Part shown: positions 12,561 to 45,187 of the stretch, piece by piece | Numbering within the stretch: position 1 is the stretch's first letter | How the letters are laid out: each line of letters begins with the position of its first letter | IMG/VR virus record: IMGVR_UViG_3300012078_000001 | Span: 1 to 64,000 of that record | Direction: 5' to 3' (one strand) | DNA: 64,000 nucleotides | Source: a virus | The notes under the pieces: generated by a model | Seen by the model: only the letters and a program-made list of their open reading frames with translations | What the model was told of the DNA's origin: nothing | The model's database searches: none | Made by a program: the position numbers and the translations under genes

Positions 12561-13067
12561 TTGTTTAACAAATATAAGCCCTTCCTATTTGGAGGGACTT
12601 TGTTTATTTTTGGTGTGGCAATTGGGACGTTAGGTTGCTATTTCTTCTTTCCTAAAACCATCACGAACACTGTTGAAATTGAAAAACCTATCGTACAAGA
12701 AACAGTTAAATATGTTGACAGGACTGAGGTTGTATATGTTCCCAAAGCCTCTCCTGCTGACGCTGATATAGAAATCACTAAAACGCAGCCTGTAGTAAAA
12801 GTTGATGTTAATGGTAAAAACTATGACTTCAAGCTTAACCAAACTGAAAATCATAAGTTTGATAATGGAAAACTAGTTGTCGATCAAGCTGGCGTTATTG
12901 CGATTGACGTGCGAACTAATGAGGACAAAAGAAGGTGGACTTTAAAATTAGGCAAGTCAAACAATAGTGTAGCAGGTGGATTAGATTATAATTTAAATAA
13001 TATTATAAATATTTGGACTTTTTATGATAAAGAGACAATCGCAGGAGGTGTCGGTGTAAAATTTTAA
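12561..13067 (+). CDS. membrane-anchored hypothetical protein, last gene of the late block
   Basis: 168 aa with an N-terminal TM helix (LFGGTLFIFGVAIGTLGCYFFF). Confidence 0.55.
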   Translation: MFNKYKPFLFGGTLFIFGVAIGTLGCYFFFPKTITNTVEIEKPIVQETVKYVDRTEVVYVPKASPADADIEITKTQPVVKVDVNGKNYDFKLNQTENHKFDNGKLVVDQAGVIAIDVRTNEDKRRWTLKLGKSNNSVAGGLDYNLNNIINIWTFYDKETIAGGVGVKF

Positions 13068-13102
13068 TCTATTAGTATATGCGAATATAGGAAAATTTAT
13101 AC

Positions 13103-13132
13103 TTGACAAACATCTGTTTTTTGTTGTATGAT
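13103..13132 (+). promoter_or_regulatory. strong sigma-A-type promoter with no ORF behind it
   Basis: TTGACA 13103-13108, 18-nt spacer, TATGAT 13127-13132. Confidence 0.55.
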
Positions 13133-13138
13133 TTTATG

Positions 13139-13268
13139 TAGATAAGTACATCGGAAAAGGCAAAAACTCGCCCCTATGTCTTGGCTGGACAGGCGAGTTT
13201 AACCAATAAATCTCCCACAACTATTCGTTTTGAGTGGCGAATATCAAGTGGCTTGATTTGTTATTGTC
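13139..13268 (+). ncRNA. candidate small RNA (about 130 nt)
   Basis: Starts behind the 13103 promoter; hairpin CTCGCC 13167-13172 / GGCGAG 13192-13197; hairpin ATCAAG 13243-13248 / CTTGAT 13252-13257 followed by a T-rich tract. Confidence 0.3.
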
Positions 13269-13370
13269 TAATATTATTATACCAAATATAAAAACCATGT
13301 CAAGTGTTTTTTTGCTGGTTTTAATGAAAAAATAGACTTTTTTTCTAAAGACATACGTTGCACAATATAG

Positions 13371-13725
13371 CTTGCCCTCAGATACAAGCGTAACTGAGTC
13401 ACCAAAGGCTTCCGAAAATTTGTACGTCAGGGTTTATTTATGTTTCCCAAGATGCTTACAAGTGTATAACCGCCGTAGTCTGAAACCGCAAGGAAGTAGG
13501 AGGATGATAAGGGAAGTTGGTAAGGCAACGAAAACCATGTGCAGTAAAGCTACGCCTTGGTGCAAGAAAAATCCCTTCCAGAACAGGATAATGGTTCTGG
13601 CTGTTGAGGGTGAGCGCCTATTCGATATGCCCATTCGCGCATATTTAATAGCCTACTTCAAGAGTATCAATCCCTAGTTTCAAGTTACCTGTATTGGTAG
13701 TTTGGAACTAGGGATTTCTCTGTCT
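13371..13725 (+). ncRNA. candidate structured non-coding RNA (class unknown)
   Basis: Visibly GC-richer than its flanks. Only implausible overlapping sense and antisense ORFs. Helices: CCAGAAC 13578-13584 / GTTCTGG 13594-13600; CCCTCA 13375-13380 / TGAGGG 13605-13610; terminal 11-bp stem 13669-13679 / 13706-13716. Confidence 0.4.
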
Positions 13726-13924
13726 CTTGCTCACAACCTTTCTCAATCCCATTTCGCAAGTTTCGTGCCAGAACTTGTACTAGTATGCAATATTTTTACT
13801 ATATACAATGCAAGCATTGTATGAGTATAGTACAAGCATTGTATATTAGTATAAGTATGGAATTTATGTTCGTTCCTTCGCGTAACCCTAAAGAAATTTA
13901 TAAAAACGTAACCTATATGGGCTG

Positions 13925-13986
13925 TGAATATGTGTATATGTGTGTCAGGTAGCGGAGCGTTAGCTGTCCACATATACACATATTCA
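13925..13986. repeat. perfect 18-bp inverted repeat with a 26-nt spacer
   Basis: TGAATATGTGTATATGTG 13925-13942 pairs with CACATATACACATATTCA 13969-13986; abuts the stop of the ORF at 13987. Confidence 0.9.
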
Positions 13987-14409
13987 TCAGCCCTTTCTTG
14001 TGCTATTTTTTGAAAATAGCTTGTCCCAAAAAGAAGGTTTAGGCTGATTTAATATTCTTAACCTTTCATCAATTAAACGATAGTGTTCGACTATTATGTT
14101 CTTCTGTTCTTCTAATATATTTTGTTGCTCAAGTGCTATATCTTTAACGCGCTGTAACTCATATTTTAACTCTATTGTAGATTTTTCAACCTCTGTATTT
14201 ATAGCGTCCTTAACAGCTTCTTTAATTACATGTTGAACAGCATTTTGAATGTCATTAACTGGTATTTTATCAAGTGCCGCCTGCACTAAGTCTTTAGCAC
14301 TTTCTTGAACCGCCTGTCGAACAGCGTTTTGAATATCACCAACTGTTACCTTGGGTTTAGTTTTTTCTGGTGTTTCTTGTTTTGGAACTGTAATAATATC
14401 GCCACTCAT
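13987..14409 (-). CDS. coiled-coil hypothetical protein with an internal duplication
   Basis: 140 aa; DIQNAV(R/Q)..V(Q/K)E..KD motif occurs twice; AGGAGG RBS. Confidence 0.55.
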   Translation of the reverse strand: MSGDIITVPKQETPEKTKPKVTVGDIQNAVRQAVQESAKDLVQAALDKIPVNDIQNAVQHVIKEAVKDAINTEVEKSTIELKYELQRVKDIALEQQNILEEQKNIIVEHYRLIDERLRILNQPKPSFWDKLFSKNSTRKG

Positions 14410-44536: not shown

Positions 44537-45187
44537 TTACTTGTCCAACGTATTAAAAGACTTGTATTGGCTGTTTGCTTGTTTATATTCTTCGTCTAAT
44601 TGCTTTGATAATTTGTAGAATGTATTTTTTTTCACGTCTGCTTTTTCCATAGCTTTAACTGCGGTAATGTAACCTTTCTTCCATTCCAGGTAGGCATTGC
44701 GTAGCTGTTCTGTGATCTTAGCTTTCGGTCTGCCGAAGTTTTGTTTCTTGGCTAGGGCTAAATCAATTCCTTCGCGCTGCCGTTGTAGTAATTTATTTCT
44801 TTCCTGTTCGGCAAGATAACTGAGTAAACTAAGAAATTGATCTTCCATGAGTTTACCAATGTCACCCATTGCTTTAAACTTCCGACTATCGAAAAGACTC
44901 TCTTGATCTAATATGACAATGTCAGCTTGTAGATCGCGAGTGATTTCTTTCCACTCCTTAATAATTCCCTCGTAGTTTCTCCCCAGCCGATCTAAGGAGT
45001 CGATATAGATTAAGTCACCTTCTCTAATGATACGCTTCATAGCTTGGTATTCTGGTCGATCAAAGTCTTTGCCGCTTTGTTTGTCTACAAAGATAAAGCG
45101 TTCTAGTATACCTAATTCTTTTAGTTTTTTAATTTGTCTTTCTGGATTTTGACTTCGATCTGAAACACGCACATACCCCATTTCCAT
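44537..45187 (-). CDS. small serine recombinase (resolvase/invertase family)
   Basis: MEMGYVRVSDRSQNPERQ catalytic-Ser motif; C-terminal HTH; 216 aa. Confidence 0.9.
   Translation of the reverse strand: MEMGYVRVSDRSQNPERQIKKLKELGILERFIFVDKQSGKDFDRPEYQAMKRIIREGDLIYIDSLDRLGRNYEGIIKEWKEITRDLQADIVILDQESLFDSRKFKAMGDIGKLMEDQFLSLLSYLAEQERNKLLQRQREGIDLALAKKQNFGRPKAKITEQLRNAYLEWKKGYITAVKAMEKADVKKNTFYKLSKQLDEEYKQANSQYKSFNTLDK

Follow-up and report, generated by a model that had tools for sequence, protein, structure and literature searches.

The segment at positions 13371–13725 of the phage sequence analyzed here is likely to specify a structured noncoding RNA, a divergent member of the EGFOA family (Rfam RF02955), judging from the homology of its core and from its fold. 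As such it belongs to an orphan family that was already known and does not represent a new class. The window, that is, the whole stretch of 64,000 nt that was analyzed, is the first part of a virus record of 65,147 bases which has direct terminal repeats and is rated complete. An original prediction, made by reading the letters, had proposed a structured RNA without a credible ORF for this segment, and a plus-strand RNA with an EGFOA-homologous core in which the family's helices are kept bears this out. It had also correctly described the segment as richer in G+C than its surroundings: its GC content is 0.439, that of the window 0.348 on average, and only 0.35% of 355-nt stretches reach the former value. 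The features of the RNA and of its neighborhood are collected in Table 1.

Rfam was scanned at gathering thresholds over the 64-kb window, where nothing was listed, and with permissive filters at E ≤ 10 over the 1.3 kb between 12900 and 14200. The second search gave a full-length match to EGFOA on the plus strand at 13442–13579 (model positions 1–108, E 0.0036) with a score of 29.8 bits, which is under the Rfam gathering cut-off of 37.7 bits. For comparison we assembled a set of approximately 27 bona fide EGFOA RNAs of bacterial, metagenomic and viral-contig origin. Pattern scans supplied members from the genomes of three bacteria (Lysinibacillus, Solibacillus and Paenibacillus, 58–83 bits), from two viral contigs (68.9 bits) and from three further metagenome contigs. 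Another five viral contigs, which score 57–100 bits with a covariance model, R1, came from a less strict pattern. R1 itself was built from an alignment of 20 members from which the window was left out. Applied to 13439–13580 on the plus strand it gives 26.6 bits (rough E ~1.6e-5), while the next-best match in the 64 kb, both strands having been searched with the filters off, is 7.1 bits; 13439–13580 is the sole outlier. The best spurious matches to R1 in unrelated viral loci, 260 kb in all, are partial and do not exceed 13.9 bits.

Table 1. Features of the EGFOA-like RNA and of its surroundings in the window.
Feature	Position	Strand	Basis or remark
2431-aa virion protein	5' of gap	+	
Two small membrane-type ORFs	5' of gap	+	
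Endolysin	5' of gap	+	phrog_894, E 2.5e-36
168-aa protein	5' of gap	+	PHROG without assigned function
Stronger promoter-like site, 11/12	13103–13132	+	consensus match only
Nearest upstream promoter-like site, TTGATT-16-TATTAT, 9/12	13253–13280	+	consensus match only
101-aa TTG ORF	13372–13677	+	rejected as a gene
66-aa antisense frame	13434–13634	-	ORF list
Divergent EGFOA core, 142 nt	13439–13580	+	Rfam RF02955 and model R1
Pseudoknot 1, CCAAG with CUUGG	13447–13451 with 13556–13560	+	5/5 standard pairs
Pseudoknot 2, CGUAGU with GCUACG	13474–13479 with 13549–13554	+	four scored pairs standard
P1 hairpin, elongated (outer UCU...GGA, inner CC-GCAA-GG, GNRA tetraloop)	13479–13501	+	model alignments and sequence
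P2, AAGGGA with UCCCUU, enclosing P3 and P4	13509–13514 with 13572–13577 (span 13509–13577)	+	R1 alignment and sequence
P3	13517–13520 with 13535–13538	+	R1 alignment and sequence
P4, UGCA with UGCA	13540–13543 with 13561–13564	+	R1 alignment and sequence
P4 loop, 17 nt, GUAAAGCUACGCCUUGG	13544–13560	+	3' strand of both pseudoknots
3' flank, lineage-specific (hairpin 13578–13600 and an imperfect one at ~13600–13666)	13578–13666	+	fold z -2.09
20-pair hairpin (13670–13715) and U-rich tail	13670–13725	+	terminator scan, fold z -6.49
140-aa orphan ORF	13987–14409	-	3' of gap, convergent with the RNA
105-aa peptidase-like ORF, then DnaE-type polymerase	beyond the 140-aa ORF	+	
238-aa resolvase-like ORF, sole recombinase-type gene of the phage	44744–45178	-	N-terminal domain E 1.5e-24

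The order of the elements in the window is that of EGFOA, namely a 5' CC.AG, then CCG.C.UAGU, P1, AGG, and P2 around P3 and P4. The helices P1–P4 are present with five to six pairs in P2, three in P3 and four in P4; P3 and P4 are each mismatched at the closing position. At columns 133/157 of the alignment, in P4, the window has U-A in the place of a C-G pair which is otherwise invariant in EGFOA. P1 is a variable hairpin with a tetraloop cap among the members; in the window it consists of three outer pairs and an inner CC/GG on a GCAA loop. The window also keeps the 17-nt P4 loop, in which conservation across EGFOA is highest. Of the conserved single-stranded letters (CCG.C.UAGU, AGG and GUAAAGCUA..CCU.GG) all but one are retained, reading CCGCCGUAGU, AGG and GUAAAGCUACGCCUUGG in the window; the exception is a U-to-C change by which the near-invariant CCGUC becomes CCGCC. 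The window copy further differs from the family in its longer P1 and P3, in a pseudoknot 1 of the form CCAAG/CUUGG, and in the A-rich junction before P2', which is AGAAAAA here and U.GA in EGFOA. Its three insertions fall at sites where EGFOA is variable, that is, in the hairpin after CCCAG, in P1 and in P3. The large gene-free gap that goes with the family is found here as well: approximately 920 nt without a credible gene (13068–13986) contain the segment, and the gaps around the members measure 470–1490 nt or more when ORFs are called mechanically.

Two pseudoknots, which covariance models cannot score, were derived here by covariation in the 20 members. In the first a 5' segment pairs with the P4 loop in the forms CCCAG/CUGGG, CUCAG/CUGAG, UCCAG/CUGGA or CCCAU/AUGGG. 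In the second [N]UAG pairs with CUA[N'], where N/N' is G/C, C/G or A/U, and one subgroup has ACGG/CCGU. Among the members alone, pseudoknot 1 is 95% paired with changes on both sides at three of its five pairs, and pseudoknot 2 is about 97.5–98% paired with such changes at three of four; no shuffle or slid register of the member alignment approaches this pairing. Aligned to R1, the window forms nine of the nine scored pseudoknot pairs. At columns 11/151, in pseudoknot 1, an A-U pair replaces C-G, and this change on both sides is a compensatory one unique to the window. For divergent copies of EGFOA these pseudoknots, which the models leave unscored, are the best discriminator.

Since the Rfam score is under threshold one might suppose that the resemblance to EGFOA arose by chance, and that the segment is a mere regulatory spacer between late and early genes, with its terminators and promoters. 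The gap clearly does hold promoters, operator-like palindromes and terminators, we found no relatives that would show conservation, and the 142-nt core considered as a nested fold has no excess stability (z +1.43 against shuffles). The last of these can be accounted for since the fold depends on its pseudoknots. A coincidence would further have to produce nearly 20 bits of separation from the best R1 background match over a search space of 128 kb, the retention of all helices, two intact pseudoknots with a compensatory double change, insertions limited to the variable sites of EGFOA, and a GC content in the top 0.35% of the window. Because 13439–13580 is an outlier with R1, its pseudoknots are intact and its insertions are where the family tolerates them, we think a chance resemblance quite improbable despite the low Rfam score, and we treat the core as homologous to EGFOA.

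A coding function for the segment is highly improbable. An open frame does exist, and an automatic pipeline called a gene of 57 aa within it, so that a small basic protein specified either by the 101-aa ORF or by this inner gene call might be entertained. The larger frame, which begins with TTG, and the 66-aa antisense frame are as the original prediction had described them, and its opinion that the former is implausible as a gene has held: among 5.8 billion proteins the only homologue is the 57-aa call of the same contig, there is no match to a PHROG family, and the frame overlaps a conserved RNA fold whose members share no ORF. We have for these reasons rejected 13372–13677 as a gene.

The suggestion that the size and phage context of the segment are compatible with the ROOL/GOLLD class did not hold up, as neither the scan of the 64 kb at gathering scores nor that of 12900–14200 at E ≤ 10 returned these families. 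The ROOL, GOLLD, HEARO and raiA models, to which the original prediction had pointed, were all without a match in the Rfam scan, in which EGFOA, below its threshold, did match. A large ornate RNA, a HEARO/omega RNA or a raiA RNA would have the phage context and the high GC in its favor and nothing else; permissive filters recovered none of them, no IscB/TnpB-type gene adjoins the segment, and the probability of such an RNA is almost negligible. ROOL and GOLLD resemble the RNA described here in being orphan structured RNAs of phages and prophages of Gram-positive bacteria. They form RNA-only multimers, as do the EGFOA members that have been solved. They differ in size, approximately 600–800 nt as opposed to a core of 142 nt, and share neither sequence nor structure with it.

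When the whole segment was folded and compared with shuffles, z was -3.9 for the plus strand and -2.1 for the minus strand. The plus-strand signal is located mainly in the 3' hairpins: 13661–13725 gave -6.49 and 13581–13668 gave -2.09, as compared with -0.29 for 13340–13438. The five complementary pairs listed by the original prediction are all found in the sequence, and their standing differs from pair to pair. The terminal stem exists; it is, however, not of 11 bp but a hairpin of 20 pairs at 13670–13715. CCAGAAC/GTTCTGG (13578–13600) is a plausible local hairpin. CTTG/CAAG (13556–13566) and TTGTA..GGG..CCC..TACAA (13419–13460) are also real complementarities, but probably not part of the functional fold, with which they compete at the conserved P4 and pseudoknot 1 helices. 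The long-range CCCTCA/TGAGGG is complementary too, with nothing that supports its pairing.

The hairpin at 13670–13715 is followed by UUCUCUGUCU and, on the basis of the terminator scan, is probably an intrinsic terminator which would set the 3' end of the RNA. A transcript of ~350–580 nt, beginning from the promoter-like site at 13103–13132 or that at 13253–13280 and ending at this hairpin, is a possible prediction. The natural EGFOA RNA of bacteria is probably ~350–400 nt in length, and conservation among the bacterial members reaches far past the 108-nt Rfam model. Over some 95 nt upstream they have three hairpins with covarying stems, CCGUGG, and loops such as AGAACACGUUAAAAA and GUUAGAK; downstream, over at least 150 nt, a UAGG..ACCUCA..CAC box occurs twice, each time followed by a GC hairpin. 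In the bacterial loci L033–L048 the conserved region extends past the Rfam match by ~100 nt on the upstream side and by 200 nt on the downstream side.

These bacterial domains are undetectable in the flanks of the window copy. R2, a model of the bacterial 5' domain, gave 2.1 bits at 13298–13355 and had its top matches elsewhere, nhmmer with a profile of the bacterial 3' flank found no match in the window, and blastn of the window against the EGFOA loci showed the P4-loop region as the only shared sequence, with no similarity in the flanks. Certain likenesses seen by eye were dropped on these grounds: in the 5' flank CUA...UAG around ACGUU, GCUUG...CAAGC and ACGUCAGGG (R2, 2.1 bits), and in the 3' flank AUAGCCUACUUCA and CUCUGU..UCACA (no nhmmer match). 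Since the flanks match no family profile and blastn is limited to the P4-loop region, only the 142-nt core is demonstrably homologous.

It is nevertheless a tentative possibility, which would add to rather than replace the assignment to EGFOA, that the core is one domain of a larger structured RNA of ~380–580 nt running from either of the two plus-strand promoter-like sites to the hairpin at 13670–13715. The original prediction would then have been right about size and not about class. The covarying hairpins conserved on both sides of the bacterial members suggest as much, as do the promoter-like sites upstream and the terminator-like hairpin downstream of the window copy, and 13581–13725 folds better than shuffles. 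Such an RNA has to be reconciled, however, with flanks that fail the 5'-domain model, the 3'-flank profile and blastn, and with 13340–13438, which has no excess structure. Furthermore the strong plus-strand promoter is separated from the core by hairpins and by a perfect minus-strand promoter (13303 to 13276), an arrangement that points to separate units.

The phage genes on the 5' side of the gap include those for a virion protein and an endolysin, and beyond the gap the DnaE-type polymerase has its nearest relatives, at ~31% identity, in gut phages, a Moorella phage and Bacillus phages. Because of these relatives the host is probably a member of the Bacillota. No ORF co-oriented with the RNA occurs downstream before 14741. 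Neither tRNA nor tmRNA genes are present in the window. No tyrosine integrase was found in the phage, which may for this reason not integrate, and the resolvase-like ORF is 31 kb from the RNA. Were the genome temperate, the position of the RNA at the boundary of the lysis genes and the early region would be the neighborhood of attP and int.

Relatives from which covariation could be drawn were sought in several ways. The gap had no blastn match among 50,697 phage records, and viral contigs contained neither relatives of the 168-aa protein nor the exact 23-mer of the P4 loop region; the DnaE search yielded one distant partial match. The neighboring 140-aa ORF has no relatives. A pattern tailored to the CCGCC variant had 24 matches, all of which failed R1. 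There were no look-alikes of the window sequence in the other genomes of the same survey, nor any close relative of the phage in the collections searched.

The EGFOA motif is reportedly due to Weinberg et al. in 2017. Its members are putative small RNAs which lie in unusually large gene-free intergenic regions (bioRxiv 10.64898/2026.07.01.735769), and two of them have been seen by cryo-EM as a trimer and as a strand-swapped dimer (bioRxiv 10.64898/2026.07.01.735769). A phage-borne RNA of the same cryo-EM study, the manA motif (RF01745), also self-assembles (bioRxiv 10.64898/2026.07.01.735769). It is like the present RNA a short structured phage RNA, and unlike it has an unrelated fold and is described as a 5' UTR element; it gave no Rfam match in the window.

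Family searches in sampled genomes, which also supplied members for the comparison, found single copies in 7/151 genomes of one class and 9/151 of one family (roughly 5–6%). Its genomic context was studied in 17 bacterial loci with ~9 kb on each side. In ten of these a serine recombinase gene, either divergent upstream or co-oriented downstream, lies 0.47–1.6 kb from EGFOA; in an eleventh the serine recombinase gene is decayed and precedes one for an rlmCD-like methyltransferase, and two more have a tyrosine integrase within 1 kb. The serine recombinase neighborhood is also seen on the viral contigs L051 and L053 and on the metagenome contig L012. At least seven viral contigs carry canonical EGFOA. 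Two of these, from separate metagenome samples, have identical copies (L003, 659–783; L004, 12149–12273) situated ~300 nt upstream of the large terminase (terL) and an SU10-type portal gene, a position that differs from the recombinase-adjacent one. These neighborhoods of recombinase, integrase and phage genes show that EGFOA is cargo of phages and integrating elements, usually located near the end of the element. The present copy agrees with this picture in its large gene-free region, in being carried by a phage, and in that the nearest relatives of this phage infect Bacillota. It departs from it in that no recombinase adjoins it, the nearest resolvase-like ORF being 31 kb away, and in that the phage carrying it is complete, has direct terminal repeats and is without a tyrosine integrase.

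The bacterial loci with a large serine recombinase gene are L035, L037–L045 and L047, and together with L012, L051 and L053 their distances to EGFOA range over 0.5–2 kb. In several loci of the Paenibacillaceae the recombinase gene is directly followed by an rlmCD-like gene, which has TRAM and tRNA U5-methyltransferase domains and is likely to be the integration site. A c-di-GMP-I-GGC riboswitch (63.8 bits; L007, 1793–1893) lies ~3 kb from the EGFOA of Paenibacillus sediminis, probably by coincidence.

As to how the RNA might work, the 17-nt P4 loop would fold back on two single-stranded 5' segments and so form the two pseudoknots and a compact tertiary fold. The many invariant unpaired letters together with the double pseudoknot suggest that this fold binds itself or a partner. 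The core probably lies within a longer noncoding transcript which would end at the hairpin 13670–13715. Because the next gene is convergent and the RNA is followed by a terminator-like hairpin, a leader or riboswitch role in this phage is disfavored; most likely the RNA is a product in its own right and does not regulate in cis. By analogy with its solved relatives it would probably act in trans, as a folded molecule that possibly assembles with itself and binds a factor of the phage or the host. EGFOA is carried as accessory cargo, at the boundaries of modules, by phages and integrating elements of the Bacillota.

Any specific biological role is proposed with far less confidence than the family assignment. 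EGFOA may be a widespread self-assembling particle of ~350–400 nt tied to the life cycle of the element, whether as a cofactor, as a regulator of integration and excision by large serine recombinases, or as a decoy between phage and host, though we consider this rather unlikely. The window copy would in that case be a stripped-down, recombinase-independent form, and its presence in a phage in which no integrase gene was found would point to a role beyond integration. What the window adds to the family is a copy that diverges strongly, sits beside a convergent gene and belongs to a phage whose genome is complete; the evidence does not of itself reveal a new kind of system. EGFOA is an orphan which is conserved and doubly pseudoknotted and forms RNA-only oligomers, and its family context helps to direct experiments.

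The gap holds several other features. Upstream of the EGFOA core, 13103–13303 may specify a pair of small antisense RNAs. Here a perfect minus-strand promoter (13303 to 13276; TTGACA-16-TATAAT with TG) is directed into a structured stretch of ~110 nt (fold z -2.5) which ends on the minus strand in a hairpin plus UUUUU near 13160, and this stretch fully overlaps the RNA predicted from the plus-strand promoter at 13103–13132 (fold z -3.7). Downstream of the segment, at 13787–13850, a palindromic box occurs twice, as ACAATGCAAGCATTGT and ACAAGCATTGTAT, and overlaps promoter-like sites which face each other (13802–13831 on the plus strand, 13845 to 13816 on the minus strand). Boxes and promoters together look like the operators of an early-region switch; spurious matches to microRNA-type Rfam families stem from this arrangement. 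Finally, a long near-perfect hairpin at 13915–13997 abuts the stop codon of the 140-aa ORF and is followed by T-rich sequence on the plus strand; it probably terminates transcription in both directions where the late module meets the early one.
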